64,000 nucleotides of DNA from Yuukianura sp. NJ FZ-2021 (lineage: Eukaryota), in the NCBI GenBank assembly GCA_046563655.1, contig CM102287.1, forward strand, positions 4,588,001 through 4,652,000, in the 5' to 3' direction. Numbering within the stretch: the stretch's first letter is position 1; every line of letters begins with the position of its first letter. This document shows positions 9,303 to 56,791 of this stretch, piece after piece. A program made the position numbers and the translations under genes. The notes under the pieces were generated by a model. The model ran no database searches and was not told the DNA's origin. It saw only the letters and a program-made list of their open reading frames with translations.

Positions 9303-9926
9303 AACTCGCGATTTTTTCTTCCCTTCAATGTCAAATGCTAACCAGCGGATCTTCCAGCATCTAAATTCCAGAAAATTCCAGTGTAGACAAAAACAATTGA
9401 AGTAATAAAATAAATTAAAACAAATTACCCAATTTTAGTCGAATATACGTCGCTCCAGTTTTAATTCGGATACACAAAGTGACCTGACAAAGGCAATAAG
9501 TCAGTCGTCATTGTCCAAATAGTTTGACCTGACCTTTGACCTAGTCCATTTAAATATAACGATTCTCTGCGAGACATAGATACGATACAAATCCCTTAAC
9601 TGATAAAATTTTAACTCAAAATCCTTAACAAAAAAAAAAGAAAACTAGAATGAGCAACTAAATTGAATTGACAGAATTAAAATGGAGTAAATTGGAGTAT
9701 CCTTAACTTCACAAACTTAAAACTCAGGGGTTTTGAAAACGATTTTCTAAACAAAGCTGCGTATTTTCTAAAACATAACATCGCTTACGTACAAACCTGC
9801 AACTAAACCACCCTCAACAGTTTGGTCTAAAGTTTGATATGACTAATCTGATGCCAATTTAGTTTTAAACAAAGGACAGTGTCACACGACCTGCCGACTC
9901 TACCCCTAAGGTCAAAGGTCAGCCTA

Positions 9927-11721
9927 TTAAAATCGACTACTTAGTTGACTACTGGAACCATTCCCACTGAGTCCTCCTCCAAGTATTCTTCCACCGGCTG
10001 ATCCTGAACTCCAGTCTTTGGCTGGAATGCTCGTGGTGTAGTGCCTTGATGAAGCTTTGTTGAAAATTGGCAACAATTCATTGGCTTCATCCGACAAGGC
10101 CTTGAGATAAATCGCTGCATCCGTCCCATAGCCATCGTAGCTGGTTAATATGAGGTCACCCTGAAAATATCTTGCGTAGAGCCGGGAGAGAGGTAATCCA
10201 TATCCAAAGCCTATAAAAAGTTAAAAACCGGGTTAATCAGTAATCGAAACAGTAATTGACAAATGTTGAATCCTCACCAGCTAACGGTGCCGTATTGCTA
10301 TGTAAATCTGCCGGAGGTTCTAGAAATTGACGAAACAGATTGTGTTTTAACATTCTTATTGTAGAATGTTGAATCGTTACGTTAACTTCTTACGAGGAGC
10401 TGTAGAATACATATACTGAAACAGAAGATCGATACAGCTTCGCGGGATTCCACCACCTCGATCAGAAATCTGGAATGCAGCGATTAGTAATTGACATTAA
10501 TCTATAATTAGCCAACTAAAAATTTGTTGATACCTTGATACTAATATCTTCCTTTCCGGTGACAACTAGGACTTCAACAGGCGGTAATGTAGTAGCTGTA
10601 TCGCCGTGGTGTTCGACAACAGCACGTAGAGCATTTTTGAACAGTTCAAAGAACATGTGGTACAGATGTGAAGGAACGTAGATGATGTGGATAGGTTTCC
10701 CAGGATTCACCTCTGAAATTCAGAAAACTCTCAATGTTAGTAAAATTCTTTGGCTAAACATTGGCAAATGGCAATTGGAGTTCATGATTAATCAGTTGTT
10801 ACCGTTATGCTCCTTGATAACGAGATCAGGAGAATGACAGTAGTACTGATCACATAGGAATCGAGCATTCTCGTAAGCATCTTGTATAACTGCCACCACG
10901 CTGCAATTGGGGTCTATCCCTCCGACATGTCTAGATGGTGTCTGCTCCTTGCCGAATAAAAGAGCTAGGGAAGAAAATTAAACGGAAATAATTCGATTGC
11001 TAGATCAAAACTATTCTTCGTCCATTGTAAATACAGTGTACTAATTCGGGGAAGTTCTTACTGTGTTGATTGATTAACATTCGAATTGAAATGCGTGACA
11101 TGTAAAATCTGTCCAGGAAGTACTGGATGCTGTGTTCCATACTATTGTCCACGGGATGTGACTCTTTCATTTCCATGATTCCTTGCGCCATTGTTTGCAC
11201 CACATCTGAATGTCGATTTCTGATCTTCACTAGAGCTTCACAAAAACTGAAATATTGAGAAAACAATCGATATGTTGCTTATACATTGAAACATTTGATA
11301 ATTTGGAATCCTTCAGTACTTGTTCAGCATATAAACGTCATCGGCCTCCTTGTCCTCAAATTCCAGTATTTCTTTGAAGCTCTGAATGTACCAATTTTGA
11401 ACAATGCTAACGGACGGCATTCGTTGCAAGTTCTCTGGAAGCAGATTGATTTCTTTCATGATATTTGCCAGGCGTACTGGCAGTTCCTTCTTCAGGAATG
11501 TAAATGATGTCTTCTCACACGCATTTCGACCTGTAATTAGTTAAAATAAACATACATATTTAAAAGAGATTAGATTAGAAACTAGGTCAATGATTGAGTA
11601 AATTCTAATAAAAATGTTTACCAAAATCAATGAATTGCTTGATTGACAACGGAGAAGGATTGAATTGAGAATAAGTATCCAACATCTTCGTCAACCGAAA
11701 CATTACACTGCTAAGCCTCAT
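9927..11721 (-). CDS. Pdk: Pyruvate dehydrogenase kinase, mitochondrial
   Basis: Motifs [43 protein letters not shown] (N box), ISDRGGGIP (G1) and [22 protein letters not shown] (G2). Exons 11622-11721, 11320-11530, 11062-11246, 10803-10964, 10534-10712, 10394-10469, 10278-10319, 9927-10210. Confidence 0.97.
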
Positions 11722-12670
11722 CGTTCCGCCTTATTAATGTCAACGGTGATCCCGAAAACTGCAGTTCTATCACTCAAATGGCCAAACCGTATCACTCAGC
11801 TTACCACAGCTGACTTCCTGCCCGGAACCGAGAGGGAATAACCGGAAGAATGAATAATCCCCACTCTTCTTGTTCTTCTTCAATGAAGTGGCAATGAGTA
11901 TGTAGAAAAAGAAACATCCAGATTAATTCGTTCCTTATTGCGTTCTCTGGTGCAATTGATGTTCCCAACTGATGGTTGCGTCCTCTTCTATGGAATATTT
12001 TAAATGACCCTGGAATATTAGCAAACAAGTGGAGTCAGATAAATTGAATGTGGACACTCACACTACCTTACTAGTATCTCTGGAGAGTCCGTCAACCTTC
12101 CTTTCTTCCAGAAATCCAGATAGTGCGTAGTTTACAAAGAATTGAGTGGTCAGATGATCCAAGCAGGATCGAGATGATGACGACAATCGTAATTGGCAAA
12201 CCAAGCAAACCCAATAAGGTCATAAGGTTACGCTGACTCTATTACGTGAAACAGCTTTATCCAAATTTAAATCAATACCCTTTCGGTTCCGATTCCGCTC
12301 GCAATCAAATCAAAAGCAATTACCTTCAATCAATCGAACACTGCCAATTACTTAGCGGCGTACTTAACTTAAGTAACGGGGACGAGGACATCTAACTGCT
12401 TCATGTAGCGCTTCCACATCCACACTACTCCAAATGCTAACTACGATTTAAATTAATCAATTACCTTGAACTCTTGGATCCTATTTGTAACCTTATAACT
12501 ATAAACGGATGTTGATTGATGAAGAATGACGAAGATGATGATAATAATGAAGAGGAAGACGAGTGATTGTTGACATTGATTGAGTGAAAGAAAAAAGTGA
12601 AATTTTCCACTAATGAAACAAAAGTAAACAATAAGCTTCTTTATGAATGAAAACGACGCACCCAGCGACT

Positions 12671-12680
12671 ACGCATGCGT
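12671..12680. promoter_or_regulatory. NRF1/Ewg-like palindrome ACGCATGCGT, likely PDK promoter region
   Basis: Perfect palindrome upstream of several minus-strand donor-like sites (about 11803, 12323, 12464) that suggest non-coding 5' exons of PDK. Confidence 0.4.
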
Positions 12681-13017
12681 GGAAGAAAATGTCACGCATT
12701 TTTTCATGCCTGCCATGACCTACCCCTTACTATCGTAGTAAAATTATCTCTGAAAAGGTCGTTCACCCCGGACTAACCTGCTCTTCATGAAACTAGACCA
12801 ATTTTTAAAGCAGGACTTTTAACTTGTTAAAACGGAACTTTTTAACTTGTTAAAAGTTCTGAGCCTTTTCAATTTTGTACAGTTAAACACATTTGAATTG
12901 AAACCCCCTAAATATTGTTGCACCATGCTTAACTAAATATTGTTTATTGATCATGCATAATAAATTAGTAATCAACAATTTAACCAGAAGCGGGTAAACT
13001 TTTGGTAAGTTAGCCCT

Positions 13018-15554
13018 TTACCCCTTGGTTGTTCGGCACCAAGTGGCTCCTACGGAGTGGTACTCCACGAACTGCTGCAGTTCAGTAACTCTTGCGTACA
13101 TTCCCTACAGCCAAGTTATATTAATTATCATTCTATTTATAATTAATTATCTAAAATTCATTAAAACTTTCATACCGGTTTATGGTACTGAGCACAGCCC
13201 TCACCCCAGCTCACAATCCCAATTTGAACCCATTGGTTATTCGGCTGCTTCAGAGAAAGTGGACCTGTGTCAAAGGTCAACAGGTCAAACTCAGGTCAGC
13301 AGTTTATAAAAACAGAAACTCCAAAAAGTTTGAACTCACCTCCAGAATCACCCTGTAATCAAATTAAAAAAAACGTAATCAATTTTTCCAAAAGCAAATA
13401 TTTTCGAAAGTTACTCGACAAAGAACTTACAGTGCAAGCATCTTTGACACCATCCTCGTAACTGAGAAAACGTGTTGTAAGTTTTAAAAAGTTTGACCTT
13501 TGACCTTTCCAGATTAAAGAAAAGCTTACCCAGCACAAAGCATTCTGGGGGTCAGCACATTTTCAGTCCAACTCTGGCAAGTCTCAAGGTTAAGGACAGG
13601 AACAGCCAGTTTCTGAAGAGCTCGACTGAAAATTGTCAAAAATTGGGCCTGATCGTGTTAAAATTATCAAATTCAGTGTAAAATTTTTATAAAGCAAATC
13701 CCTGTATCATACGTAGTTGCACCAGCACTTTCATGTCCCAGGCCCCACCCGACAACCATCGGCATTTCCTTTTCGTAGAGGTCAGTGGTCCCCACAGGGG
13801 GAAGGCAGAGTGGCGTAGGTGCATCGGGGTGGGTAAGGTCAATCTTTCTGTCCAACTTAAGCAGAGCAACATCGTAGTCATAGCTGTCAGTGAACAACGG
13901 ATGCCCAATGATGTCCACCACTTTGAATCGCTGCGTCTTCTCCTCAATGTCGGTCAACCGCGTTTCGTTCCATCCAGAGGCCTGAACTGACCCACTCTCT
14001 CTACAGAAATAGTTAAATTGGTCAATAAATTGGCAAACACTGTAATTAAAATGACTGTTAATTGCGGACCCCAATTTGACACTTTCGTTGTGGTGTGCCA
14101 AGATGGTCATGTCCAGAAGTCGAGCGTGGAACAGCACATCGATGTCCACCGGCTTCGTTTTGGCAAAGTAAAAACTAAAAACACAGAAAAAAAAACATTT
14201 TGGAACTAAGTACTTTGGCAGCATTTTTTGTCGCAAATATTTTGTCTTACCAATGAGCGGCGGTGAGGACATATCTGGAATTGATAATACCTGGAAAGGA
14301 GTTAATTAGAAATTATACGTTATGTATTAAATATATTATAAAATATAATATTAAAATCTAGATTTAACTAGACTTACTGCCTCCGCAGATCGGTGACCGC
14401 GTTCCACTGGTGACAATTGCAACTTGCCAAGGAAATTCGTTCATCTTGGCATTTTCTCCGCCCACAATTCGATCATCCTTATTCTGCAATCCACAAACTA
14501 AAAAAAACATAATAAAATATTTGATTTAACTATTTTAAAATAAAAAGTAAAGATTTTAATACAATTGTAATAAAACTGGACGTACCACATCGAAATTCTT
14601 CCTTCTTTCCAGTGTCGCCTGACTGCAATACGTTGGCATTTCCTTGAAATCAAAATTCCATTTAAGCTGAAAACTAGTACCTACACATTTTTCTAAAAAA
14701 AAAACGGTGATTTCGAAAACTAAAACTTCTTATTTGAAATGCTGACCTCCGGAGCATCTCGCCTCACACTTGAACCCTGTGTGCCCATCTCCTTCAACTG
14801 TTGCTTTGAACTTGACGTAGAGGTCACGTTGGTTCTGTGACGCCCTGACTGGTTTGGCGAACTTGTCTTTGCCACAAAGCTTCTCAACTCCGCCCACTCC
14901 GTCAGAAATTTCCAGCGACTCGGCGTCACATTCCTCCGTCTGTGCCAAGTTGAACTCATGGCACACAATTTCCGGAGTACAGGTCTTGTCACCCTAAATA
15001 CACACAAAAAAACACATTGACCTTTGACCTCAACTTGACCTTTGACCTTGAAATTCCTGTATTTACCACAAAAGTCCATGCGCACTCGAGAGAACTCGGA
15101 TGTTTCTGGTCTGAGCCATAAAACGGGGAGGTAAAGGTCACGCTTAAAAGTTCCTGCAACTTGTAACCAGCTCCGCATCCCTCTAAAAATATATTATACA
15201 AATTCATACATCAATTATAATAGTAATATGTTTTTGGTTGACCTTTAGAGGTCAACAGGTCACCAAAGTTTTTCACCTTACCCAAGTACTCCTGAATTGT
15301 CGCAGCTTTGTCATCCGCTCCGCGTTTCTTCTCCGCAGCAGCCGCTCCTGGGTCAATTTGCACCTTGTTCACAGCAGACACACTTCCAGTACTTTTCCCG
15401 TCAATTTCCTACAAATTCAACAACAAATTCAAATTCATATAGTTTCCATTAAAATAATACAAAAACACATAATAAAGTATTTCGAAGCAATTTTTACAAT
15501 TAAACTCAGAAGTAAGAAAGTGCAACAAAATTCAATCCAGCGTTTCCGTTCCAT
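13018..15554 (-). CDS. Secreted CUB-domain trypsin-like serine protease
   Basis: Signal-like start MERKRWIEFCCTFLLLSLI. CUB domain (FTSPFYGSDQKHPSSLECAWTF...CDAESLEISDG...KLCG...GFKCEARC). Activation site CGLQNKDDR|IVGG. Triad VLTAAHC, DYDVALLKL, DACTGDSGGPL. Ends GMYARVTELQQFV...WCRTTKG*. About 13 short GT-AG exons. Confidence 0.92.
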
Positions 15555-16245
15555 TTTGAATTTGAAATTAATTTCAAAATGTAAAACAGAAATCCACGTA
15601 TGGCCCAACTCAACTGAAAAAAAGTTCGTCGCTGAATGTAATACGTCCAGTTCAACCTACTTTGTGGTTCGATGGAACAATTACGACTATTTTTACGATT
15701 ACTTTTACCATTTCTTAGAAAATACATGCGGAAGCAATATGGACTTCACAAGAAATCGGGGTCAACTTACTTCCTAGTTTCATCCTATTAATTTGTATTG
15801 TAATTTAAGTAATTAAAAATGAAATGAAGAATTACTTTATTTAATTAATTTCAATCTTTAAAACAAAGCTATCGTAATGCCAGCTCGAAATAATTGAAAA
15901 ACTGAACGACACATAATCTCTTCAAAATTCTTGCGAAAGAATTTCTGCATCTCAGAAACTCCTGCAAAAGAATTTACGAATTTCAAAATTCTGGCAACAG
16001 GATTTTTGCAATTTCAATTCCATGCCTACTGTAAATTGCAAATTCAAATTCCCATGGAAAACGAAAACGATGATGAAATAAACTTACTACCAAAGTTAAA
16101 TAATTTGAGTTCCAAATTTTCACCAAAAAATGATTATTTTTGTGATGAATTGAATATTGGAGCGATTGTTTCAAAAGATTTCATCTACATTCGCGCATAA
16201 ACTGAAATTAGCTATTTCGTCAGAACTTGAATTTGAAAACTAAAA

Positions 16246-19200
16246 ATGGCTTCTGCACAAGCAAAGGCAAAACCGGGAGCCAAAGATGCGAAACGTCGTA
16301 AGGAGGAAGCTGACATGGATGTTGTCATTCGTTTTTTCGACTCTTACTCCCGAACTATGGAGGGGATTCGGAAACCGCTGGAAGAAATGCAGCAAAAGAT
16401 GGATGAGCTTGACGATGCCGTTTATCAGGGGCTGGGGCTCGTTGAGGACAAAGTTCTCACGCAAGGAATCACGGAAGGAGCCTCCCGAAATGGAATCTAT
16501 GGCGTCGCTGACCTTATTTTCAACTCACATCTCCAGGTTTCTCCCAAGAAATTTGAAACTTTCAAAATTTTAATTTCAAATTTCAAAAATCTACAAAAAT
16601 CTAGGAGTACTTTGGAATCACCAAAGACGGAGAATTGCTTCATTTTGATTGGACAGGCAACACTTTGCCTGCGCCCAAACCAACTAAACCATTTACCAGA
16701 TTCATTCACTGCGGTGCCACTCCAATGTACATTTGCTGGACTGCCAAAAAATCTGGATTCTTTCTAGCCAGAGAAGACTGGACATTTGTCATTGACGCTG
16801 TGGCCATAGCCCCTATTGCGTAAGGTCAAAGGTCAAGGTCACCAAAATTTGGTCTCCGAAGTTAATTTAACATAACTTTCGCTGTAGAAACATTGTTTCC
16901 GGTGGGCGAAAAAGTGACGACGGATTTGAGTTTTTCATCATTTCGGGAGCAACGCTGAACGTAAAAATTTCACTTCAGCGTCATGTGACTGCACAGATTT
17001 TTCAAAATTTCACGCTTTTTTCACTTTTCAGCGCTACAGTTACCATGCATCTACCAATTTGATGACTCTGCAAGACGCTTTGACTTTGTCAGATATTGAA
17101 GCTGAAGGATCAAGTATTGAACTGACATGTTTCGATGACCCCAAAGATGACCGGAAACAGTGGATCTACTGTACTTTTGGAACAAGCTGTACAATCATAG
17201 ATGTCACCGGCAGAGTTCATGGAACCAAGAGAAATCTTCACCGTTACAAAATCACTGCAATCGCTGCCACTGGCGGATCCGATTTTGTGGTCACTGGAGA
17301 TGACAAGGGGCTCTGTAATCCAGAAAACCAAAAAATTCATGACCTTTTTGTGACCTTTGACCTTGTGACCTTTTGCAGTAAAAATATGGGGTCAACGCTG
17401 GGCTTACCTCGGAGAAGTCCAGGCTCACCACGGCCGTATTACGCATGTCATTGAACATCCAGATCCATTCGCTCGTGCTTCCATTTCGTTCGGAAAAGAC
17501 CAAAAACTCGTAGTCGTTTCCTTCAACAGTCTGAAAGAAGTGAGTTAAAGGAGTATAAGTTTCCAAGTAACATTGACCTTTGACCCCGAGCGACCATTTG
17601 ACCTTGACCTTTGACCCTACAGATCGAATCCTTGGAAATGCCAGAAGTAGCTACCCGGGTAGTTGTAAATCCGTTTAGAAAAGGATTTATGACACAAGGA
17701 CCGAGAAAAATCATCATGTGGAAAATGAATTCACTTCTTTCTCTGCGCCAATCAACCACGTAAAATTTTCTTCAAAAATTTCAGATCATTGGGTTCAATA
17801 ATTTAGTTTTCATTTCATCATGATAATCTACGAAACGTAAATTTTGAAAACGAAAATTTCATAAGAGTTCTATTTGATTGAATTTTTTAATTGATTTTAC
17901 TTCTCTTCAAAATTTTATGAACTAAACCAGAAATTTTTGGGATTTTTTTTTCCAAGAGCACCGGTTGTCCGGATGCTGCTGTCAGCTGACTGTGGTTTGC
18001 CACGACAAGTTGTTGCGACATGTTCAGACAACGCTGTCCAAATCCTAAACGCTGCTTCTGGACAAGGAATGACTTCTGTGCTCATTCACCCAATGGAACC
18101 AACGACACGAAGTGTCGCCTACCGTCGTCAAGTTAATGCAGACACTCTCTATGCCCTGGTTGACAACGACGCCATGTTAGACCTACAACAGTTCGACTGT
18201 CGCGCAAATCCAGCTCGTTTGATTGAAACATGGCCAGAATCCAAGTGGAACGTTGGTATCACTTGCGTCACGTTTTTTGAACACAATCCAAAAATTACGA
18301 TCGCAGAGAAGGAACTGGCGTTTACCAAAAGTAATTCAAAATTTCAAAAAGTTCAAAACACACAAGTTATTGGATTTTAAAATTTCGGAATTTTGAAAAT
18401 GTAATTCTTCCAGGACGAAAAGCAAAGCAAATGGCTAAGCAATTCTTACTCTGCGGTCGTCGTGACGGTTGTTTGGTCATAGTTGACATTGACACAGGGG
18501 CAATGGACAGTGTCACTCAAGGTCACACGGGAAGTGTCACCTATATTGAAATTGACCATCAGCTGAACCAATTCATTTCACTGGGAACTCTACCATCTTT
18601 ACGTCTATGGAAAATTGGACAAACTGAAGATGAGCGATTGCTTCCACTAATGGACGTCACGTGGAAGCATCATCCAATCAGCATGGGATCCATTCTGCGC
18701 AATGTCATTGCGTTCGTCCTTGACCACAAAGAGTCCAACCAGTACAAAGTCGTCATGTTCAACACTCTTCTAGCCGGTACAACGAAAATTTCAAACAAAA
18801 AATAAGTTCTCCAATTTTCAAAAACTTGCACATTAATTTTCAAAATTTGCCAACATTTTCAGAAAAATTTGAACACGACGCTGAAAACGGCCACAAAAAG
18901 GAGATTTTATCCATTTCGGCTTGCCGAGAGTTGTCTATTTTCTGTACAGCGTCGCTAGATGGAACTCTCATGGTCCGGAGCAACAAGAATATCGTGTATC
19001 GCGTAAGTTTGTAAATTTACGTAAAAATCGTAAATTTTTACGGATTTACAAAACTCCTAAACTTTTACAAATTTTCGTCGTTGTGACTATTTGTTACAGG
19101 TGATTGTTCTTAACGCAATTCCGAGTTGTGCCATATTCGCTACCGGGCAAGGCGACATTTTCGTTGGAATCGAAAAGGAGATTTACGCCATCCCAGCTCA

Positions 19201-19713
19201 AAAACGTTAGTACTTTTCCCCAGGAAGGTCAAAGGTCAAGGTCACCACTAAATTTCTCACCTTGCCCCAATAGATTTGTCAATCGTAGCAAGAAACCGTG
19301 CGCTGGACATGGGTCCAACACCAGGAGCCGTTGAACCGCGAATCAGCGCTTCCTCGAGAGCTGTACGAGACAAACGGTTCCAAGCCGAGGAAGAAACTCA
19401 TCGTGACCTTGAGGCTTTACCGGTAGTGACTCCGATTGATCCTGAGCCTGACTCTCAACAAGCTCGTGACCTTGAGGTCATGCGGCTCATCAACGACGAC
19501 ATTAAGAAGATCATCAAAGGTCAGCATCCCCTTGACCCCATCATTCCAGACTTCCACAACATGTCCAAGAAAGAGTGGGACGACTTCGGAAAAAGTATTT
19601 ACGGAGACGACGGAGAGAATCGCAAATTCTTCGCTTCCGAATCCCGTCTCGCGGCTGCGATGAAAATGCAAGCAGCCGGACCCGATTTGGACAATTTTGC
19701 AAACATTTCCTAA
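16246..19713 (+). CDS. WD40-repeat protein, resembles WDR97/WDR87 family
   Basis: Spliced exons 16246-16536, 16605-16819, 16888-16960, 17032-17314, 17379-17539, 17623-17759, 17957-18330, 18414-18776, 18863-19002, 19100-19205, 19274-19713 keep one frame. WD-type motifs: VVTGDDKGLLKIW, QGHTGSVTYIE...LRLWK, GHKKEILSISAC...CTASLDGTL, and RVIVLNAIPSCAIFATGQGDIFVG. Family assignment is from memory of WDR97-type sequences. Confidence 0.75.
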
Positions 19714-40405: not shown

Positions 40406-40492
40406 TACTCCGTCCGACTTCCCTTCACTTTTCCTCCCATCTCACCCCCACATGAACCATCGCAATTTACGACTTTCTCGCTGTGATTCTTG

Positions 40493-40705
40493 GAGTAGAG
40501 GGTAGGATCGTACTTTGGGACCAACTTAGTTTTAGCCCTCCGAAAAAAGAGTCCCTCAGATATGGCAAACTTAGAAACTGCCAGATAACAAACTACCGAC
40601 AAAATTTCAACAACAACAATATCAATAAAACGACAAAAACTGACGTACCGTATTTCGGAGGGCTAACAATATATAGTAGGCCGACTACTATCCTACCCTC
40701 TACTC
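40493..40705. mobile_element. MITE-like element, about 213 bp, with bipartite terminal inverted repeats
   Basis: Outer perfect IR gagtagagggtaggat / atcctaccctctactc, and inner IR ttagccctccgaaa / tttcggagggctaa. No coding capacity. TA target duplication is possible if the termini are GAGGG...CCCTC. Confidence 0.65.
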
Positions 40706-41527
40706 TTTGGGCATATAAAAGTGCACTAATTTTTTATAAATTACAAAATTTTTTAAATATATCTGTTGCTCCAATAACTAAAATTTCAGTCTGTCAAGCA
40801 AGAAGGAAACCCAACTTGTACGTAATTCAAATCAATTATTGAAATGGAAGTTTGAAGAAATGTGTTAATTCACTTGTTTTTTCAACTCAATACTATTAAT
40901 TTACTTGTTGTTTAAATTCATTACAACTTACAATGCTTAACATAGTATAAAGTTGAGAATGACAACTTTTGTGTGAATGGAATTTTATTCATTGTATTCA
41001 TTAGTAATAGTATGCTTGTTCAATTTCTTTCCTTATTAAATATAATGTTGTTCCAACAGGTAACTATAATTAGTACTTGAGTGTTGTCGACAACATTTCT
41101 TTCTATTAAAAGCTTATTATTTTATGTTCACTTACTTGCGTTTTTGTTTCTATTTTAAAAAAAAATTATTATAACTAATACGTAATTGAAACATTTTTTA
41201 TTAATTAATAATCGTTCTTAAGCTTTTGTCACGACGATGAGGTATTAGTACAAAAAAAACATCCGTGAATATACTATATTCATAATTCGCGTTTTGCAAC
41301 AGAAGCCCCTGCTCAAACCTGGCGGAATCCGCCGGATTCCTATCTCCTCTGTGTTAAGGTAAAATGAGGGGGGAACCCGTCCCAACCTAGTTTGAGTGAG
41401 AGTGAGTGAGCGAAAAACTTGGTTGGGTCTCCTAACAAGTGCTTTAGTATTTTTTGGAGAGTTTGCTAATTAATTGAAGTAGTTACTAATTAAATTCATA
41501 AAGTAGTTTTGATTTAGTTTCATCACA

Positions 41528-46372: not shown

Positions 46373-46865
46373 GTAAAAACTAAACTTTGTTTTAAAAAAT
46401 TCTTAAGAAGTGTTGCTCGAATTATTCCTGTTTTAAAAAGTTGGTTTTCTTTTAGAAACTGTTTTTTCTAAAAATGTTAAGACGAGCACCACCTCTGTGT
46501 TAGCCTCCGCCCTATTTTTCTCTAATAAAAAGTTCAAAGTTGTTATACATTTTCAGTTTATAAGCTTTCTGTGGAACGGGATTTCTCAATGGGGAAAAAA
46601 TTTCGAGATATTTCAAAAAAATGTGGGCAATTTTTTGAAATATTTCGTAATTTTTTTTTTGCTAATGATGTGTTTGTAGTTGAGGTAATTAGCACCTTTA
46701 TTCAGAAGAAGTTTGCAGTAGGGAAAGCAAGTGAAGCGTGCACGGGTTACAGCAAACCTGAAGATATGCATTTTGGAATGGATAGATTCAAGAGGTCAGA
46801 GGTCAAAGGTTGCTGCTGCTGAGATCAGAAAGGCGTTTAGCCCTGGAGGTCAAAGGTCAAGCGTG

Positions 46866-49032
46866 TCAATCGGAGTCTTCTATGCAGGAATTGGCCAAAT
46901 CCACCGGAGAAGCGTCTGCCCAAGGTTGTGGTTCTCCAGAAGCCAGCAAAGCGTACACGACTCCACCAATGAAGTAAATTGTTCCAGAAATTGAAAACAC
47001 GCCACGCCACTCTGCTGCTGTCTGCTAACGTAAGTCAAATTCAAAATTTTTAAATTTTCCAAAAAAAAACGAAAACCGATGTGTTTTTTCTTTTCAGTTT
47101 TGTTCAAATTCTTCTTACCGCGTTAGTTCCCACCATCCAACCAGCGATTATTGGAGAAACCATGCCAGGAATCGTTGCAAACTAAAACAAAAAGTGAGTT
47201 AAAATTGGAAGTTAAAAATTTTCGAAATTCAGAATTTTCAAAAGTTATAAGTTTTTGTTTTTTGAAAAGGTCAAAGGTCACTGACCGTGTTGGAGATGCC
47301 CATGAGTAGACTGGAGTATCTAGGGGCAATGTCGAGATGGTTGACGCTGAATCCAGCCCAAGCGAATCCTCCCAGTCCTACTGCAATCGTGAGGAACAGA
47401 ATCGCTCCAATTGGATTCGTTATAAATGCTGCTCCGATGATAAATGTCGTCTGGACCAAAAATGCACCGCAAGTGAACAACTTCCGAACAGAAGTTGTAC
47501 TCAAATGACGAATTCGGAGCCAATCGGCAAGTATTCCCGCCAATTGAACAACAATGGCCATGGCCAAGTATGGCAAAGCAGAAATGAACCCAGATTTGGA
47601 CAAGTTCATGCCAAAGGAGCCTACCGGTAACAAAATAAAATTTCGAATCTTGCTAAAAATTCAATTTTTTGAAAAAATAGTTAATTAATTCGTGTGGAAT
47701 GTAAATTCTCTGACTGGTTTTACTTTTCATGTAGGTTGGTAGCATGGTGAGAAGCGTGTAGAATCCCCAATTTTCTGCAAAGTGTGCAGCGTTGATAGCC
47801 CAGACTGGTCCAGATTTCAGCATCTGCCTCCAGGGAAGTTTTTTCTACAAAGTAAAAGTTTAGAAAAGTTGATCCTACTTTCAAAAAGTTCTAATTAAAA
47901 AGTGTGTTTGAGTTTTGCAAAGTTTTTGAAAGTTTTACAGTTAGACTGGGTGATGGTGGTGACAAACTGCATGTGATGTAGTTGACCTCTGCCTCTGAAA
48001 TCCACTTGTCATCGACCGGTGACTCCGAAATGTTCCACATCCAAAGTGCTGTCCACAGTAGCGCCACTATGCCAAAGACGTAGAACACACTCGGCCATCC
48101 ATACACATCCGCCAACAATCCAGACACTGGAAGCGATATGACTGTTCCAGCGTAGGATCCCGAAAATGCAATCGTCACCAGTCGGCTTCTCTCGGACGCT
48201 GGAGCCCATTTACTCCACTTTTGTCAACAAAAAAAGTAAAGTTAAAAATTCACAAATATCTACAAATTGGTCAATCGATGAATCTTACAATTGAATGCGC
48301 CGCAGGGTAACTGACTCCCTAAAATCAAAATCCAAAATTTTGAAAAACTTTTGGTAATTTTCGTTTTCATTTTTAGTTTCTACCTCTGCCAATCCTTGAA
48401 GTACCCTGAGGATGACCAAAGGTACGACGCCTGCGCGAGCAGCCAGAGGAGTCAGAAGTGTCAGAATTGACGTAATCAGGACTCCATAACCGAGCACTTT
48501 TTTCCCGCCATATTTTGTGGCCAACCAACCTAAAACACCGGACACCAAGACGTAAGGAAACTGGTCTAATTTTTCGAAATTTTCGTGCAGTTACGACAAT
48601 TGCTCGAATCCTGTTGACTGTGCTTATGGTGACGTTTTTTTTATGTAATCATTTTTTATGCATTATATTTCAGATTAAATAATCAATTACCTCCAGGAAT
48701 TTGAGTGACAATGTATCCATAGAAGAAGGAGCTGAGAATGAGTCCCTGCGTGGAAGCGTCCCAGTCAAAGTCCTTCTTCTCCGTCATGGACACAATGGCC
48801 ACAGACAAGTTGACCCGCAAGGAATAGATGTTACAGAATCCCAGAAAAGCCAACACTGCAACTCCATAACGTCGTGGCAGTGAAAACGGCCAGTACTTCC
48901 TGTCAAGCCAAAGGTCAAAGGTCACCTCTTAAGCCCAAGTCAACTTCAAATGTCAATTTTCAACTCACCTTCGTGGTCCCTCCGTCCCGTCATCTCTTGC
49001 ATCCTCTTCAGATTCTTCCTGAACTGGAGCAT
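46866..49032 (-). CDS. Sialin-like SLC17 anion transporter (MFS)
   Basis: [118 protein letters not shown], and end ASGEPQPWA...DSD*. The start codon is uncertain. Confidence 0.93.
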
Positions 49033-50659
49033 ATCCTCCACCGCTGCTCTTTCCAAGCAACTTGTCCGTGGCAGCCATTTTCCCGGAAGGAGTCCACTGT
49101 CGATACGCTCAAAAAGTTTCACAACCACTTCAGTTGTCCATTGTCTTCTTCTTGTCACTGCTGTTCCCCTGAGGAGAGAAAGTCAGCAGCAGAGCAACAG
49201 CTTTCCAGCGGCTCCAGCTGGAAGTAACTCCCAACCTGTTGTAAAATTCAGCGTACAGACAAGCAGGAACCACCAACATATGGGAAACAACTCTTAAATT
49301 CACACCTTACGAAGAGGTATAACTTTCTCTTTTCCTGTACCACACAAAAAGTGCGTCGACGTAGTACTAAAGAGGTAGTACATAAGTTATAAGTGGTACA
49401 CTTAACTTTGTTAAGTGTAACATCCCAGGCTTACAACTTGTAAGTTCTTACAAGTAGCAACTCCTGCGGTTAGCTCAAAATTATGGTTTTTGACACGTCC
49501 GTGTGAATGAGCAGGGCAAATGAACTTAATTTTTAGTTAAGGAAAAAATTAGAGCAAGTTTTGGTCAAATTCGGACCAGATTCTTTGAAATTTTGAAACC
49601 AAACAATTTGCAAATCCATTTTGGGGCATTGCAATTTTACAATTTTATTTATAATTTTTGTAATTTTCCATTTCACATTTTGAGTGACGAGTTTTGTACA
49701 ACTAGGGTTTATTAGCACCGAATTCACAGTTTCTAAGTTAATATACATAGTAATTAAAATTTTTAGTTAAACTAGTTCCACTAGTCAAGAGATGCGTAAG
49801 TTGCGCTTGCGCAGCATGCTCTTTGTCTACTTCATTTTGGTTGAGCTTTGTCATGTACACGGTGGGTTTTCAAAAGAATTAGAAGGTCAGAGGTCAAAGG
49901 TCAAGTGAAATTGCAGGAAAAGTGTTTACGCAGGTACATTTGTGTGCTAAATTCAATGTTAGGCTAACTAGAGTAAACATTGTGCGTTACGCTAATGTTG
50001 AGACACGAGTGCTTCAAATGTTTGTAGTAAGACATGAGTACAATGCATGACATGTTGACCTGGGAGGTCAGAGGTCAGTGACCCCTTGGCTCCGTCAACC
50101 ACGTATTTCTGCGGTACTGGACCTAACTAAACTGTAGTCTAAACAACATCAAAATTTTAGCCTAGTTGTCTACTAATTTAGCCTACAACACAAATTTACA
50201 TGACTAAAAATTTTAGCAGTTTCGGTTAGGACTAATTATGGTTAGGTTAATTTACCCCTAACTTTTTAGCTGCATTGTAACAAATTGTGGTGTTAGTAGC
50301 TTGTAACATTGTTTTTCGAATTTTGGAAAAATTCAGATCAAATTTCTAAAAACACTTTTTTTTGATGAATTCTTTTTTGAAAATTGCATTGAACAAATTT
50401 TGAGCAGTAAAATCTTAGGCGTGCATGTTAGAGTTTAGCGACGGTTAAATTTTCTTTTCTCTGAATGTAGTCGAACTGTTTATTTAAACGTAGTTAATTT
50501 TTATCCTCGCCCAGATTAAAACGGAGGTGAAAGTTCGTGTTGTTGTGTTCAAAATGCTTTGCAAATTTTGAAAACTGGCGCGGTACTGGACAGTAGTTGG
50601 ACATTTTGAAATTTCGAAACGGAATGAAAGTGACGATTTGTTGGTTTGTGTGTTTTGAT

Positions 50660-52665
50660 TTAGAGCTGGAGCAGGATAATGAGGTAGGTGGTGACGATGG
50701 AGAAGAACGTCAGAATCGTACTTCCTTGGATCTGGAAGCAAAGTCAAAGGTCAACAACCTCGGAAACTCAACAATTCCCAACAACCTCAAATACTTGCAA
50801 GTACTCACATCGTAGTAGTCTCCGCAGTTGATTCCGAGGACTCTGCAAGCATGTAGCTTGACCTCAGCCGTTTCGTAGGGCTTGCCTCCGCGCAGTAGCT
50901 TCGGAATTTCCTCGAGCCAGGAGTAGATGAAGATCTCCGAGTCCTCGCCCATCTTGCCCATGAACGGCAGGAGACAGCAAATGCGCAGAGTGAAGAAGAC
51001 AGAGTACGTACTGAAGAGGAGGCTGGTGAAGATGGAGTTGGAGTCAGAGGATCGGAGGAACACGAAGATCAGGATACACATCATTGCCAAGTACAGCGTC
51101 TGGTGGGCCAGGAAACTCCCGGAGAAACAGTCGTTCAGATTCTCCACCACGAATTCAACGCGTCTAGAAACAAACAAAATCAAAAATTTCGAAAAACCGA
51201 AGCTTAGACTAGAAAGAGAATCATTTCTTCAACCCGAAAGTTCAAAAAATCCTAAGATTTCTATCGATTTTTGTGTTTTTAGGATTCGAAATTCTTTAAA
51301 CTTTTTTGAATAGGCAAAACTGCAACTGGCAACTGTAAGAATTCAACTCAAATACTTTCTAATTCTAAATTCCATTTTTGGTTGGAGTTGAACTTGAATT
51401 TTTTTCAATTTCAGATTTGACCTTTGACCTTGTGCTGACCTGTAGTTGTCCGTAGCATCCTCCACTTGCATTTCCTGTTGACTTCCGTACTGCGTAGCAT
51501 CTCGCTTCTCAATATTTTCTGCAATGGTAGCGACATCCAGTGTGTCGTTCTTCGGCTTCTTCCGTCCACATACTGCTCGGCGTTCCATCGAAACCGAGTT
51601 CAGGTTACTCAGACTCTCAATGCTAAAAAGTTGATATTAGATTTAATTAAACGTTTAAATTAATTTATTTTAATTAATTAATTTATTTTAATCAATTTGT
51701 TACCAGTGTCGGACGGATCGCACGGTAGCCATCATGAGGATTTCGAATGATCCTGTGTGGACGATACAGAGTGAGATCATGTAGAATTCGAGGAAGGTGG
51801 ATGCTGCGAGGAGGGGCAACGGTGGCTCCTCCATCAGACTCGTGATGTAGGCAGGGAACTGCGGATTCGTCACGTTGTGGGTAGCCACGACAATGCCCGT
51901 GAACAACGTCACGAACATGTACATGCGCAGAAGTTTGTTGAACGTCTTGGTTTGAGCCCTAAGTAATTCAAATTAATTTATAATATTTAATTAATTAATT
52001 TAATTATTTTTTTCATGAATTCCTAGTTACCAGTAGCAGTACATTCCCCGCCGGAAGTCGTCGTACTCCATGTCCTCCTTCTTCTCCTTCCCAGAGTCAA
52101 AGATGGTCGACACCTTCGTGTTTTCCTTAATGTTTGCTCCCGTGTCCTTCCCTGGACATACACATCAACGCTAAGCATAAAGGTCAAAGGTCAAGAGCTC
52201 AAATTCAAAATTTTACCGCCAATGAGATCTTTTTCAAGTTGGATCCACTGTGTCAGGACATCGCAGAGCTTCTGTCGCTTCTTTCCGTACAATGTGATTG
52301 ATGGCAGAGGAAAGATGGCCATGATGAGCCAGCAAGACTGCGAGAACCATTCGACCTTGTTGACCTTCCCCAGCACACTGGACACAGTGAGCAAGAACAG
52401 TTGGTAGAACAGGTACAGGAACAACATCGTCGTGTTCAGACGTGCCCTGTGACATATTTTATTATAATTATGTAAAATATAATATGATAAATTGATATAA
52501 TATAATTAATTAAAATTATAATAATACTGACCAGAGCTTGATCGGTCCCGACCGATGATGGTCCACAACCGTCCCATCCTCCTTGATATGGAACGGGAAA
52601 ATGCCGATTTTGGTGGCCAAGCTGAAGAATTTAGAGTACGCTTTGGAGTAAACGCGGCCCGACAT
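50660..52665 (-). CDS. Gustatory receptor (7tm chemoreceptor family)
   Basis: N-terminal IGIFPF, multiple TM segments, and C-terminal GINCGDYYDIQGSTILTFFSIVTTYLIILLQL* with the GR TM7 signature TYxxxxxQ. Seven GT-AG exons. Confidence 0.88.
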
Positions 52666-53374
52666 CCTCAAAGGTCAAAAGTTTTGACTCAAAATCCAAA
52701 GTTTTTGTGACCTCTTGACCTGAAACTTTAACTTTTTAGTACTTTTAGTACTTTTTCAATTAGATTATGACAATTAGATGCTGAGTGCCGGAGGTGTCTG
52801 CCAGACTGCCCACCTTCGACTGATGACCAAAATCCGAAATTCGGACCAGCGTCTCCTTCTTTGTCCTTCAAAATTTCGTCGATATCCAAATATCCATTTT
52901 TCTCTTGAATTTTTGAATTTCGATCAAAGTGAAACCTTCGGCGAAAAGCGTTCTGAAAAAAATGGAAACTTCATGAAATAGCCCAAATTGGTCCATTAAC
53001 TGAATAATTAACTTAGGTTTTGGCCAGGGGAGAGGGCCAAGCTAAGTCCACGTCAGCTCCAAAATTTTTGTAAATTTTGGTGAAAACTGGGAAAAGGTGG
53101 AGTTTACATTAAAAATTCATAACTGTAACTCCGCCTCTGTTCTGTTTCCAAAAATTAGAAAACTGTTGACGACCTGGTTGGAGCCTGTTGGCGCTCTCTG
53201 ATTGGTCGAGCCCGGGCCGTTTTCTGGCTCCAAGGTCACACAGGCCAACTTGGACGTTTTGCGTCGTAGATTTGCCAGCGGTGGCGTCTTTTCTGGAAAG
53301 TAGTGCCCAGTTCCTATTTGCAGGACGAGGGAAGAAGACGTAACGTTAAGCCACAAAACTACGCTAAAATCAAG

Positions 53375-55210
53375 ATGGATGACCAAGGATTCGGAGTTTA
53401 CAAGTTCTACTTCAACTTTTTGAGGAATTTTGGCGCCTTTCCGTTCCGTATCGAGTATCCCGGTACGAAACTCGGGTATCACCGAACCGGTCTTTTCAAA
53501 TGGATGTACTACATCAACTTTATCGGTGTCGTATTCGGAGCGGCGTTTCAATTTGCGCAACTCATGTTAACCATAACGTACGATCCGCAACCGATGCATG
53601 TCATTGGTCAATTGGCTTGGATGTTCGCCATTTGCATTCCGCTGGCCAATTACATGTCGTTCATCCGGAGAGAAGATCGTGTCGTCAACGCACTGGACAA
53701 TTGGTGCCATCTTGAGAGGAGTATCATCGGTAAATTTTATTTTCTATAAATTACTAATAAAATATGTTAATTAATACTAAATTATTGAAAATTATGCTTA
53801 AATTTCAACAATTTTACGTTATAGGATCCACTCTCCGCGGAATGGCCAACATGCCTAAGGGCCCAATGCCGTCCATGTCCGCATGTCACATGAAACAGAA
53901 CCGACTTTTCCGGAAAACGTCCAACCTTTATCTGCTGATGGGCATCATAACTGTGGGAGCAATGTCGGCTCAATGCGTCGTCCAACCGGAATTCCCAGCG
54001 TATATTTACTCCGTCGCCCAAGAAACTGACGACATTTTCCGCTACGTGGCGACTGGCTACCAAATCTGGATTGTCGTCCTCGTGTGGGTCCATTCGTATT
54101 GCACCGAGGTCATTTTCATTGTTGCCGCTGGAAGTCTCACCCACTGTCTCGAGAATCTGAGCTACAAGGGCTCCGTGGTCATGGCCAACCGACAGTGCGA
54201 TGTGCCCAATATCAATGACCTCATGATCCGAAACTGGAATGCTTTTGAAGGTAAGTGACCTCTTTTCCATAATTTGTTTCTTTTTTCAAAATTTCAATTT
54301 TCTCTCAAAATTTCACTTTTCTTTTCAGGAAAATCTAAAGGTGGAAGTGCAATGGGCGGACAGGGGGAGAAAGTCGGTAGCGCGATGGACGGACGAAAGG
54401 AAACGCAAATTTCGAAAGCCGGTTACAACCAGGAAACGTACTACTTGGCTCATGTCGTGCAGAACGTTGTGGTAAGTTCGTCGTGACCTTTGACCTTCTT
54501 GACCTTTTACCTTCGTGACCTTTGACCTTTGACCTCGTGACCTTCATTGCTTTTTGCTTTGCAGGACATCCAATACGCACTGGATCGCTACAAAGATGTA
54601 GAGGGCGTCGTGGACAACATCAACAACACTTTCGGTCGGATGCTCTTCAACCACATGTCGGTCTACATGAGTAAGAAACCAAAAAATTCAAAATTTTGAA
54701 TCAGAATTTCAGAAAACGAAATTGAAATTTTGAATTTTTCGAAACCTTAGGCCTGATGTGTACCTTGTTCTACACGCCAATTCGTTACGGAACGTCCGTG
54801 CCATTTGAAGCGAGCATCCTGTTCTCCATCGTGGCTCTGTTCTACCTCGTCCGTCTCTTCATGTTCTTTCCGTCCATGGGGAAAATCAACGTCCTTTCGC
54901 AGAAGTTCGTCGAGTCGTGGATGGAAGGGCTACGACACATTCCGAAAGGGAAGTACGCCTACGAATTCTACATGCACAAGCTCGAGAGTTGCCGCAAACT
55001 GGCTTTTGACGCAGGTAAACTACGCTGACCTCAGAAAAACACACATAAAAATCCATCATTCCAAAAAAGGAAACTACAAAAATTACAAAAATTTCGAAAT
55101 CTTTTTCAATTCAAAAATTAGGTGGATTCTACCTCATGCAGAAGGGAACAGTACTTACGTTCGTGTCAATCGTGACAACACACATCATTGTGTTGCTCCA
55201 GCTCTACTAA
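53375..55210 (+). CDS. Gustatory receptor (7tm chemoreceptor family), divergent paralog
   Basis: FGAFPF N-terminal motif, QPEFPAYI shared with the neighbour (NPQFPAYI), and end LAFDAGGFYLMQKGTVLTFVSIVTTHIIVLLQLY*. Exons about 53375-53729, 53825-54250, 54329-54471, 54564-54670, 54751-55014, 55122-55210. Confidence 0.88.
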
Positions 55211-55265
55211 AAACAACCTCAAAAGATCAGCATCAGCATTCCACTGCACCGTTACACCGCTTTCC

Positions 55266-55355
55266 AGCGTCTAAGGTTCTCGGAGCGCTTAAACTCTTTT
55301 CGAGCTCCTAAATTTTACCTTCGAGCGTCAAGAATTCTTCGGAGCGTCTAAATTT
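55266..55355. repeat. Degenerate ~20-bp tandem repeat downstream of the GR stop codon
   Basis: About 5 copies of '(c/g)gagcgtctaa(a)ttt..tt'. Confidence 0.55.
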
Positions 55356-56791
55356 TGCTTAGGAGTGTCTAAAACCCTGCAAGAAGCACAAAATCAGCGT
55401 TCGTATTTCCATAATCGGTGGGAGGCGGGAGCAATTCCGTTTCAAATTGGATCATTAGCCTCTCTTTGTACCTGGATCTTCTCTTTCGGAATGATGTGAA
55501 CTCAAGGGCGACTTGAAGTCTATGTGTCTGTCCCTTTGAAAACACTTGGAATGGCCCTTTGAAATCCAATGTCTAAATTCATCGCACGTTCGTCTTTGCT
55601 AGTCCCCCATTCTGATATTGAACAAATAGCTCAAGCCCTTCACTCTAATTCGATTCATGTCGAACAAGAGGCGGAAGAGCGCAATAGGAAGAAACAATCT
55701 TCAAAAGCAAAGCACACGTACCTACTTTGCCAAAGTCTAAATTTTCAATTGTATAATGTAGAATTCAAAATTTTGAAAAACTACAACAATTGATCAGAAT
55801 AAAAATTTGGAAAAAGTGATTTCTCCCAATCGCAATTTGCAAAGGCTCTATTATAACTTACAACTTTCCAAAAAAAAAATCACAGAAGCAAAGCAGAGTT
55901 TTTCAAGTGACGTTTAACTTGACCTTTGACATTTTAGATTTAGTTAAACCGTCAATTGTAAATTAAAGTAACCTGTTGATTCGTAAAAAGTAAATCCGTA
56001 AATCGTAAACTGTAAATCTGTAAACCGTAAACTTTAAACCTAATATAAGTTTCATTCCAGGTGGACCGTGTTGATTGGCCTTCGGGAAATAAAATTGACT
56101 TTCACTCAAACGTAACTTTCTTGTGAGTTTTAGATTAGGTTTTTCGTTAGGTTGGTTAGGTTTACTTTCTCCCACGTTAGGTTTACTAACCTACTCACTC
56201 GTTTTTCCTAAAACTCCAAATCTCAACCTTGTCATTTCGTCCTGGAGGCTACAAACATCCTGAGAAATCCCAGGAAATTCTTCAGTCATGCATCATAATT
56301 CTGTACTTCGCCTGTCTCTTCTTCTCTCTCGGAAGAAGGTAGGATTTCGGAGGAAATGAAAACGGAAACCCCTTGAGTCGTTTCTCATTTGATCCCATGC
56401 AATTTTAAGCCCAATATTTTCAAAAACTTGTTTTTTAAGCAACTTTTTTTTTAAAACGTGCTTGCATGAACATCCAATTTCCTGGAAGCTGGTTCCTTGT
56501 AGGCAGAGGATTCCAGGAGTGTTGCTTAAACAACTTTTTTTGTGCTTGTCGTCTGAAAGTGCTGAGCGGTGGGACAAATATTGGTTTTCATCAATCTCTT
56601 TCTTGAGCTGCTGGAAGATGCTCCCGGGAAGTGACACTCTTCAGATGGCACAGCTTTAGGTTAGGCCGTTAGGTTGGTTAGGTTTTTGCTGGGACGTTAG
56701 GTTGGGATGCTGGAGAAAGAGAAAGTTCAGTTGAGTTGTGGCAATGGAGGAGAGGGGTTTTGCAGGACCGAGGCTGAACAGTCCATGTGCT

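Follow-up and report, generated by a model that had tools for sequence, protein, structure and literature searches.

Why does a gene-dense stretch of a Yuukianura genome carry the word AGGTCA, or TGACCT when read on the other strand, so often, and why so often inside introns? We followed this question through 64,000 nt of Yuukianura sp. NJ FZ-2021 (assembly GCA_046563655.1, contig CM102287.1, positions 4,588,001 to 4,652,000), the whole of which is called the window here and supplies all coordinates. The original prediction, made from the letters of this stretch, had seen the hexamers in arrays at exon edges, with TGACCT before acceptors and AGGTCA after donors, and had proposed a genome-wide exon-edge code acting as stacked branch points or as a boundary signal in chromatin. 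The arrays occur in non-coding sequence where genes are densely packed, chiefly in the tiny introns and at the starts of the untranslated regions (UTRs) of some genes. Our own reading, which we hold tentatively and at slightly less than an even chance, is that they form a lineage-specific family of bare AAGGTCA micro-tandem repeats, on which splicing acts as a filter and which serve at some sites as branch point or donor.

Abundance and structure of the AGGTCA arrays

AGGTCA and TGACCT together occur 114 times in the window, compared with 31.0 ± 5.8 in dinucleotide shuffles, and none of 100 shuffles reached 114. Grouping of at least two hexamers within 30 nt gave 23 arrays and left 47 singletons (Table 1). 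All hexamer clusters listed in the original prediction were found in their places, but those at 50742 and 55920 each turned out to be a single perfect copy with a near-copy beside it. Three arrays were new: 22837-22884, with five hexamers, and those at 19467 and 43095. The palindrome at 19467..19480 is probably not a member of the family, and the pair at 43095..43115 is probably due to chance.

The enrichment is confined to the exact hexamer (114 versus 30.8, z 15). Among its 18 one-mismatch variants, none is enriched but AGGTAA, which is the donor consensus. Two direct AGGTCA half-sites with a 1-nt spacer define the direct repeat 1 (DR1), and the arrays contain this element in its strict form: the perfect DR1 word AGGTCAAAGGTCA is present in 17 copies versus 0.0 in the shuffles; copies with a single mismatch number 11 and those with two number 7, for expectations of 0.2 and 2.1.

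AGGTCA-N-AGGTCA is the established DR1 consensus according to the parts of two papers that we consulted (PMC3384313, PMC1785376), and as the commonest array form is this textbook element, receptors of the HNF4, USP and Svp type are predicted to bind it on naked DNA. The arrays may accordingly be read as selected binding sites, that is as clusters of DR1 and of spacer-free direct repeats (DR0) for a nuclear receptor (HNF4, USP/RXR, Svp/COUP-TF or A-AGGTCA monomers) or for another protein; inducible, tissue-specific genes and their surroundings would then carry a regulatory or chromatin layer peculiar to the lineage. We regard this as a serious rival, although on the unlikely side. The number of perfect DR1 13-mers speaks for it, and the near-perfect spectrum of copies would fit constraint. 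However, receptor half-sites tolerate RGKTCA, yet the permissive forms GGGTCA (25 versus 20.5) and AGTTCA (65 versus 61.5) are not enriched. Receptors also use inverted and everted pairs, whereas hexamers no more than 12 nt apart lie on the same strand in 39 of 42 pairs and on opposite strands in only 3.

In the portions of the papers available to us, Alu repeats of primates multiply receptor response elements, namely DR2 retinoic-acid elements (PMC1785376) and HNF4alpha sites (PMC3252374). Like these, the window arrays are AGGTCA-type direct repeats of very high copy number, scattered in genes and introns beyond classical regulons. Unlike them, they are not carried by a short interspersed element (SINE) of roughly 300 bp with like flanks, but are bare, with unrelated flanks and the exact hexamer only, and mostly form head-to-tail DR1/DR0 runs of 2-8 units.

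The internal structure of the arrays is that of a short tandem repeat, with head-to-tail units and a constant period. Among the 42 close pairs, a spacing of 7 is found in 20, and spacings of 6 and 8 in 5 each; the DR1 spacer base is A in 17 close pairs and G in 3. Since the base preceding the array is an A in 15 of the 23 cases, we take the repeat unit to be the heptamer AAGGTCA. Most arrays consist of 2-4 units, with a maximum of 8, and Tandem Repeats Finder reports about 19 of them. The head-to-tail order and the dominant period of 7 resemble a 7-nt microsatellite, and the imperfect longer arrays look like expansion products. Unlike in a microsatellite, a single motif accounts for 18 of the window's 70 near-duplications of period 7, most arrays have just two units, which is below any slippage threshold, and the recurrence of one word at so many places goes beyond what ordinary slippage would produce.

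Two side observations belong here. A few short palindromes with hexamers on opposite strands, at 15239-15262 (a 7-bp inverted repeat with a 4-nt loop, TGACCT-CTAA-AGGTCA), 50056-50070 (TGACCT-GGG-AGGTCA) and 47280-47290 (GGTCA-G-TGACC at a donor), resemble inverted-repeat hormone response elements or small RNA hairpins. Period-5 near-duplications in the window include 12 of the class AACCT, the third commonest class of that period; AACCT is the complement of the insect telomere-type word TTAGG.

Placement in introns and relation to splice signals

The curated gene models comprise 88 GT-AG introns with a total length of 7650 nt (12% of the window), and 13 of the 23 arrays lie inside them (binomial p 3.6e-7). 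Three others are found in 3' UTRs (one in PDK, two in the transporter gene), four are intergenic or upstream (9525, 49884, 50056, 52708) and three are exonic or of unsettled status (19467, 43095, 22837). All 13 array-bearing introns belong to five of the 11 genes (permutation p 0.021), and six genes with 48 introns in total have no array.

With one exception of 276 nt, the array introns are 64 to 104 nt long and are no longer than the others (median 71 nt versus 80 nt in 70 array-free introns, p 0.098). Once the array is subtracted, 11 of the 12 short introns with arrays retain 32 to 56 nt, and the intron 15183-15281 retains 80 nt; one intron of 64 nt would be reduced to 32 nt and one of 93 nt to 33 nt. 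The intron 47182-47285, with 91 nt left, and the 276-nt GR intron are the long cases. The short remainders indicate that the arrays count toward the length that these introns need. At the same time, the six genes without arrays have equally tiny introns, and because these are spliced without any array, a general exon-edge code is ruled out in this window. The intergenic and upstream arrays point in the same direction, as do the tests of edge proximity and polarity below.

The same distribution bears on the binding-site explanation. Arrays occur in the GR-like, protease and transporter genes and at the 3' end of PDK, but not in spectrin or the 35-39 kb gene, and they also occupy intergenic DNA and the divergent spacer upstream of a GR-like ATG, all of which would suit regulatory sites. 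On the other hand, a seven-fold concentration in introns of 64-104 nt relative to other non-coding DNA is unexpected at the DNA level, the same is true of the link between orientation and splice signals, and about one array per 3 kb would exceed any plausible regulon. Selected binding sites are thus made less likely by three features, namely that the hexamer is so strict, that its units run almost only head to tail and that the arrays are concentrated in introns, but they keep their place as a serious rival.

Proximity to exon edges proved to be within chance. Eight of the 13 intronic arrays end no more than 12 nt from an exon edge, compared with 5.65 expected from uniform placement in the same introns (P 0.13), and the apparent hugging of edges arises because the introns themselves are so short. 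Read along the gene, eight of the intronic arrays are TGACCT and the other five AGGTCA. The proposed polarity, TGACCT near the acceptor and AGGTCA near the donor, fits 9 of the 13 arrays, a trend that does not go beyond chance (P 0.125 under uniform placement; Mann-Whitney p 0.12-0.14 per array for relative position and two distances). A Mann-Whitney test per hexamer gave p 0.024, with hexamers that are not independent of each other.

Many of the individual placements described in the original prediction stood up. The TGACCT arrays at 13274, 17340, 17574 and 48912 end close to their acceptors (Table 1), and the array at 52181 and the hexamer at 50748 (16 nt before the acceptor) also lie where they had been placed. 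Only the first four of these arrays, out of the 8 sense-TGACCT arrays, are nearer the acceptor, so that there is no overall bias. The sense-AGGTCA arrays at 13494, 15018, 16823 and 19226 begin downstream of donors at the short distances listed in the table, and at 51418-51441 the hexamer itself provides the donor AG/GTCA (the slash marks the splice junction). The array at 47268 is an exception to the polarity, as had been said, but it shares the donor side with those at 15239, 52181 and 54484 and with single TGACCT copies at 54256 and 55026. Arrays a few bases past the PDK and MFS/sialin stops, and the motif just before the GR start at 52665, were also confirmed.

A simpler rule would account for part of the pattern. 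None of the five sense-AGGTCA arrays approaches its acceptor to less than 24 nt (P 0.062), and the closest sense-TGACCT array is 7 nt away. The AG exclusion zone upstream of acceptors is an established principle in the part of the literature that we consulted (PMC1431707). Because AGGTCA contains an AG, it would be barred between branch point and acceptor, and the pyrimidine-rich TGACCT, which has none, would be tolerated anywhere; AG exclusion therefore predicts an acceptor zone free of AGGTCA and a free choice of position for TGACCT. Base composition, which predicts a ratio of 1.08, does not account for the sense-strand excess of TGACCT in introns (30 versus 15 hexamers). In the transcribed units (introns and UTR arrays), TGACCT leads by 16 to 5 (p 0.027), or by 16 to 7 if two donor-junction hexamers are included.

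This excess is one of several findings in favour of a second rival, namely that the arrays are RNA-level splicing elements under selection, consisting of stacked branch points with pyrimidines, (UGACCUU)n, and U1-like AG/GUCA words near donors, which in some of the genes would help to define introns of very small size. Among introns without an array, 10 copies of yTGAC lie 10-40 nt upstream of the acceptor and 3 lie elsewhere, which shows TGAC to be an ordinary branch-point word here. Judged by reading the sequences, five of the eight sense-TGACCT arrays (13274, 17340, 17574, 48912, 54484) supply the only yUnAy candidates 15-40 nt before the acceptor, and TGACCT arrays that fill the branch window probably serve as branch points. 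Donors of the form AG/GTCA are present at 3 of the 88 introns (14746, 47986, 51439); in the array 51418-51441, two hexamers are alternative in-phase donors, CAG/GTCAGC at 51439 and AAG/GTCAAA at 51421. The share of arrays within short introns and the usual length kept by these introns would also fit. Nevertheless, we consider selection for splicing improbable as an account of the arrays. The idea of stacked branch points may hold for the five introns just named, and 75 of the 88 introns, including all those of the six genes, are arrayless. Half of the sense-TGACCT arrays lie nearer the donor, the polarity is within chance, 10 of the 23 arrays are outside introns, and plain avoidance of AG near the acceptor explains the sense-AGGTCA pattern. 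Compared with a known branch point and its pyrimidine tract, the arrays are alike in that TGAC fits yUnAy and that no sense-AGGTCA array comes close to an acceptor; they are unlike it in stacking 2-7 copies where one is needed, and half of the sense-TGACCT arrays lie outside the branch window.

Branch-point seeds were also considered as the general origin of the arrays and rejected, as 18 of the 23 are not sense-TGACCT in the 3' half of an intron. As a separate observation, a C at donor position +3 (GTCAG/GTCAA/GTCCG) is found in 6 of the 88 predicted donors (14746, 14069, 47986, 47285, 52531, 51439), all of them in array-rich genes and none in spectrin.

Flanks, carriers and origin of the arrays

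Motif-specific dispersal requires a copying process, and the arrays could be remnants of mobile elements, either of a 5'-truncated retroposon with an (AAGGTCA)n 3' tail or of solo DNA-transposon ends with subterminal AGGTCA. An all-against-all comparison of 100-nt flanks yielded four matches among the 23 window arrays, all of them between arrays separated by 54 or 172 nt, so that their flank windows cover some of the same DNA, and thus no real flank similarity. Target-site duplications gave no signal: the mean best direct repeat is 2.4 nt versus 1.6 nt in 2000 random controls, and direct repeats of at least 6 nt surround 2 of the 23 arrays versus 5% of the controls. No element with an AAGGTCA-type tail was seen in the 64 kb, no Rfam family matched anywhere in the window, and the array introns are not longer than others. 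Within the window, the motifs do not resolve into fragments of a transposon or satellite, as the original prediction had allowed they might. The missing carrier is also what would be expected of selected binding sites.

A different picture emerged from metagenome contigs, which were scanned as a positive control for three hexamers with gaps of 0-2 nt and contained at least 124 stretches at at least 123 loci (L001-L123; 311 kb). Among the matches listed, which are the scope of all statements on these contigs, the flanks of 115 of 183 arrays match the flank of another array, so that the AGGTCA array is repeat-borne in at least one other genome. The contigs have nothing in common with the window besides the arrays. 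Their commonest triple, AGGTCA-A-AGGTCA-AGGTCA (49 cases), is also the commonest of the window (2 of 6, at 16823 and 19226), and Pfam identified in their frames one reverse transcriptase (RVT_1), on an array-bearing contig, and a few bacterial proteins. The arrays of both sources are therefore alike in hexamer and composite form, but those of the metagenome are carried by repeats. As further observations, these contigs have a G+C content of about 0.40-0.48 and several arrays each (5 in 8 kb in L021, 5 in 5.4 kb in L070), and most of their arrays lie within shared-flank repeat families.

DNA contigs of public runs were aligned to positions 9000-24000. The array 15018-15048 drew many foreign contigs with unrelated flanks, with a summed depth of about 15,000 compared with about 160 beside it. 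The continuations of these contigs (their loose ends) agree at just 0.39-0.55, which argues against a common carrier. Together with the bare flanks in the window, this makes the mobile-element explanation quite improbable in our view, despite the repeat families of the metagenome.

The same alignments revealed a second organism, about 2-4% diverged, with contigs over 14357-15825 (26 differences, 14 gap letters) and over 16795-17752 (36 differences, 8 gap letters). So few gap letters over five arrays of 31, 24, 19, 32 and 37 nt indicate that the arrays are present in this organism and are older than the split, a degree of sharing that would also fit constraint on binding sites. High-depth foreign array contigs of the second organism show the same array family. 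With regard to unit numbers in different individuals, 7 gap letters were counted in a run X1 contig that covers 14733-15255; among the indels listed there is also one of 4 nt at 15031, in a row dominated by foreign contigs.

Introners are mobile elements that generate introns in some algae, fungi and other eukaryotes. The arrays resemble them as a repeat found in many introns and able to supply splice signals (AG/GTCA donors, TGAC branch points), and as occupants of paralogue-specific intron positions in two GR-like genes. They differ from introners in that no whole introns are shared and terminal repeats and target duplications are lacking; the array-bearing introns have no sequence in common outside the arrays, and arrays also occur outside introns. 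In the portions of the literature that our searches returned, we found no report of introners in springtails, nothing on the DR1 word with introns in arthropods and no description of TGACCT enrichment in this lineage, for which a check of the literature had been suggested; matches for AGGTCA or TGACCT with springtails were primer-type or unrelated.

These findings are best accommodated, if still tentatively, by the bare AAGGTCA repeat family. Copies would have been seeded by a motif-specific process and would then have grown and shrunk by tandem duplication, and splicing would filter where each orientation can persist. In RNA sense, AGGUCA holds both AG and GU; it would be excluded between branch point and acceptor and could act as the donor AG/GUCA. 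UGACCU, a yUnAy branch-point word with pyrimidines, would be tolerated anywhere and would probably serve as the branch point where it fills that window.

Several points weigh against this reading. No mechanism is known by which a single exact heptamer would be seeded at many places with neither flanks nor target-site duplications; slippage by itself does not favour a particular motif, and copies made by classical transposition would be recognizable from their flanks or from duplications. The top-heavy spectrum, in which perfect copies outnumber those with one and these outnumber those with two mismatches, could together with the strict hexamer equally mean purifying selection on a binding site. 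That housekeeping-type genes lack arrays fits enhancers of regulated genes as well as it fits purging. The short remainders of the introns suggest that the arrays are not simple recent insertions, random placement would seldom put two DR1 arrays 2 and 6 nt past stops (P 0.0014 to 0.012, post hoc), and the sense-strand excess of TGACCT lies outside what base composition explains. All position tests depend on our own gene models and on the 13 intronic arrays.

Another conceivable reading is a self-spreading, two-faced intron module, which would be a donor (AG/GUCA) in one direction and a branch point with pyrimidines (UGACCUU) in the other. Its copies in transcribed DNA could rebuild, shift or create tiny introns. 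Such a module would explain why arrays can occupy between one and two thirds of an intron, as they do in several, and yet not add to its length, and would cover the three AG/GTCA donors, the arrays right after stops and the position of the two largest arrays of the GR-like pair at introns that the other paralogue lacks. We give this idea little credence. A variant at the DNA level could be that the AGGTCA words form a dense receptor-binding layer on regulated genes.

Gene models, neighbouring features and implications

The arrays and the genes around them are collected in Table 1. Genes were named from Pfam on single reading frames and from the frame list. The label GR was not confirmed by Pfam on single frames; it comes from the original prediction and from a C-terminal TYhhhhhQ-type motif that we take to be typical of such proteins. 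A homologue search with one exon of the WD gene gave no match, and the model of this gene follows frame continuity alone.

Table 1. AGGTCA/TGACCT arrays and genes of the window. Sense refers to the strand of the surrounding gene; the last column gives array-bearing introns per introns for the genes.
Feature	Position	Strand	Array form or basis of gene call	Context or array introns
Array	9525..9542	-	3 AGGTCA (minus-strand reading)	about 385 nt downstream of PDK stop, upstream of spectrin; three neighbouring genes all on minus strand
Array	9909..9921	+	perfect DR1; PDK gene sense TGACCTTTGACCT	starts 2 nt after TAA-TAG stop of PDK, start of 3' UTR
Array	13274..13298	+	3 hexamers, sense TGACCT	75-nt CUB-trypsin intron 13265-13339; 9 nt before acceptor, fills branch-point window
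Array	13494..13506	-	perfect DR1, sense AGGTCA	68-nt intron 13462-13529; donor 23 nt, acceptor 32 nt away
Array	15018..15048	-	two DR1 units (4 hexamers), sense AGGTCA	73-nt intron 14994-15066; donor 18 nt, acceptor 24 nt away
Array	15239..15262	.	mixed: sense TGACCT twice, then AGGTCA	99-nt intron 15183-15281; starts 19 nt after donor
Array	16823..16841	+	AGGTCA-A-AGGTCA-AGGTCA, gene sense	68-nt WD-gene intron 16820-16887; 3 nt after donor (GC/GTAAGGTCA)
Array	17340..17371	-	4 hexamers, sense TGACCT	64-nt intron 17315-17378; ends 7 nt before acceptor
Array	17574..17610	-	3 perfect sense TGACCT and TGACCC-type variants	83-nt intron 17540-17622; 12 nt before acceptor
Array	19226..19244	+	19-mer identical to that at 16823, sense AGGTCA	intron 19206-19273, 20 nt after donor; alternative acceptor at 19288 equally in frame
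Array	19467..19480	.	TGACCT-TG-AGGTCA palindrome	last coding exon of WD gene
Array	22837..22884	-	5 hexamers	139-codon open frame 22701-23117 (minus) with Gly-Gln-Gly-His-type (GQGH) repeats; candidate exon
Array	43095..43115	.	AGGTCA and TGACCT 15 nt apart	acceptor/exon start, second trypsin gene
Array	46793..46805	+	AGGTCA-G-AGGTCA; MFS/sialin sense TGACCT twice	3' UTR, about 60 nt past stop
Array	46847..46859	+	perfect DR1; MFS gene sense TGACCTTTGACCT	starts 6 nt after TGA stop of MFS/sialin
Array	47268..47280	+	perfect DR1, sense TGACCT	104-nt MFS intron 47182-47285; 5 nt after donor ACG/GTCAGT
Array	48912..48924	+	perfect DR1, sense TGACCT	69-nt MFS intron 48900-48968; ends 12 nt before acceptor
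Array	49884..49903	+	3 hexamers	spacer between MFS 5' end and 3' end of minus-strand GR-like gene
Array	50056..50077	.	TGACCT-GGG-AGGTCA-G-AGGTCA	spacer between MFS and minus-strand GR-like gene
Array	51418..51441	-	3 hexamers, sense AGGTCA	spans exon-intron junction, minus-strand GR-like gene
Array	52181..52193	+	perfect DR1, sense TGACCT	middle of 65-nt intron 52152-52216; donor 23 nt, acceptor 29 nt away
Array	52672..52721	.	gene sense AGGTCA-AG-AGGTCA at -56..-43, TGACCT at -12..-7	upstream of ATG 52665; divergent spacer shared by minus-strand GR-like gene and plus-strand paralogue
Array	54484..54543	-	longest array: 7 perfect sense TGACCT and one TTACCT	plus-strand GR-like intron 54472-54564, filling 60 of 93 nt; donor 12 nt, acceptor 21 nt away
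alpha-spectrin	to about 8.8 kb	minus	Pfam, frame list	0/19
PDK	stop at about 9925	minus	Pfam BCDHK_Adom3	0/7
CUB-trypsin protease	13.06-15.4 kb	minus	Pfam, frame list	4/12
WD-repeat gene	16246-19713	plus	Pfam, frame list	4/9
32-33 kb gene	32-33 kb			0/3
35-39 kb gene	35-39 kb			0/12
frizzled		minus	Pfam, frame list	0/2
second trypsin gene	42.2-44.1 kb	minus	Pfam, frame list	0/5
LLPH		plus	Pfam, frame list	
MFS/sialin-type transporter	46.87-49.08 kb	minus	Pfam, frame list	2/8
GR-like seven-helix gene	50.67-52.67 kb (50671-52665)	minus	ATG at 52665	2/6
GR-like seven-helix paralogue	about 53.3-55.2 kb (about 53318-55207)	plus		1/5

Gene models were obtained with an exon-chaining program and corrected by reading the frames around every array. 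After removal of the curated introns, the protease, both parts of the WD gene, both GR-like genes, the transporter and PDK each read through as a single open frame, 353 to 473 codons long, in which the expected motifs are present. A number of proposals were discarded on the way. A 57-nt intron at 15111-15167 was false, as it lies inside a CUB exon; the acceptors 13245 and 13455 were wrong and were replaced after frame reading, which also led to rejection of the splitting of the 276-nt GR intron by the gene finder. The introns 17659-17784 and 17793-17956 were dropped because they leave an 8-nt exon between them, and 53463-53540 because it lies within a continuous frame. Also removed from the curated set were 44087-44216, every proposal within 8944-9958 and within 11686-13021, and 5 of the 17 proposals in the 35-39 kb gene, together with all weak plus-strand chains.

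The G-D-S-G in the catalytic serine motif of the CUB-trypsin protease is encoded by a 13-nt micro-exon at 13340-13352 (minus strand). The introns on either side measure 78 and 75 nt, and the downstream one holds a three-hexamer array. Just downstream of the plus-strand GR-like gene, at 55982-56040, an unrelated heptamer array, (CGTAAAC) repeated about 8 times, was observed.

The two GR-like genes are divergently oriented paralogues with 112 identical residues out of 348 aligned. Only one of their 6 and 5 intron positions is clearly homologous, and the largest arrays of the pair are at positions without a counterpart in the other paralogue. The two trypsin-domain genes have almost no intron positions in common. 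As a test of array-linked intron gain, the comparison of paralogues was given up, since nearly all intron positions differ in both the proteases and the GR-like genes, with or without arrays.

If the arrays are neutral, they amount to a clean experiment of nature on the filtering of sequence by splicing signals in introns near the minimum length, with the same word tolerated or excluded according to strand and distance to the acceptor. They would also reveal a route by which a perfect transcription-factor site can spread with no transposon in sight. Under selection, they would instead represent a lineage-specific layer of densely spaced receptor-type sites or splicing elements in a hexapod group that branched early. 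In either case, about every 4 kb holds a perfect DR1, perhaps quite independently of hormone control, and annotation pipelines and scans for hormone response elements in this lineage should allow for such abundance.

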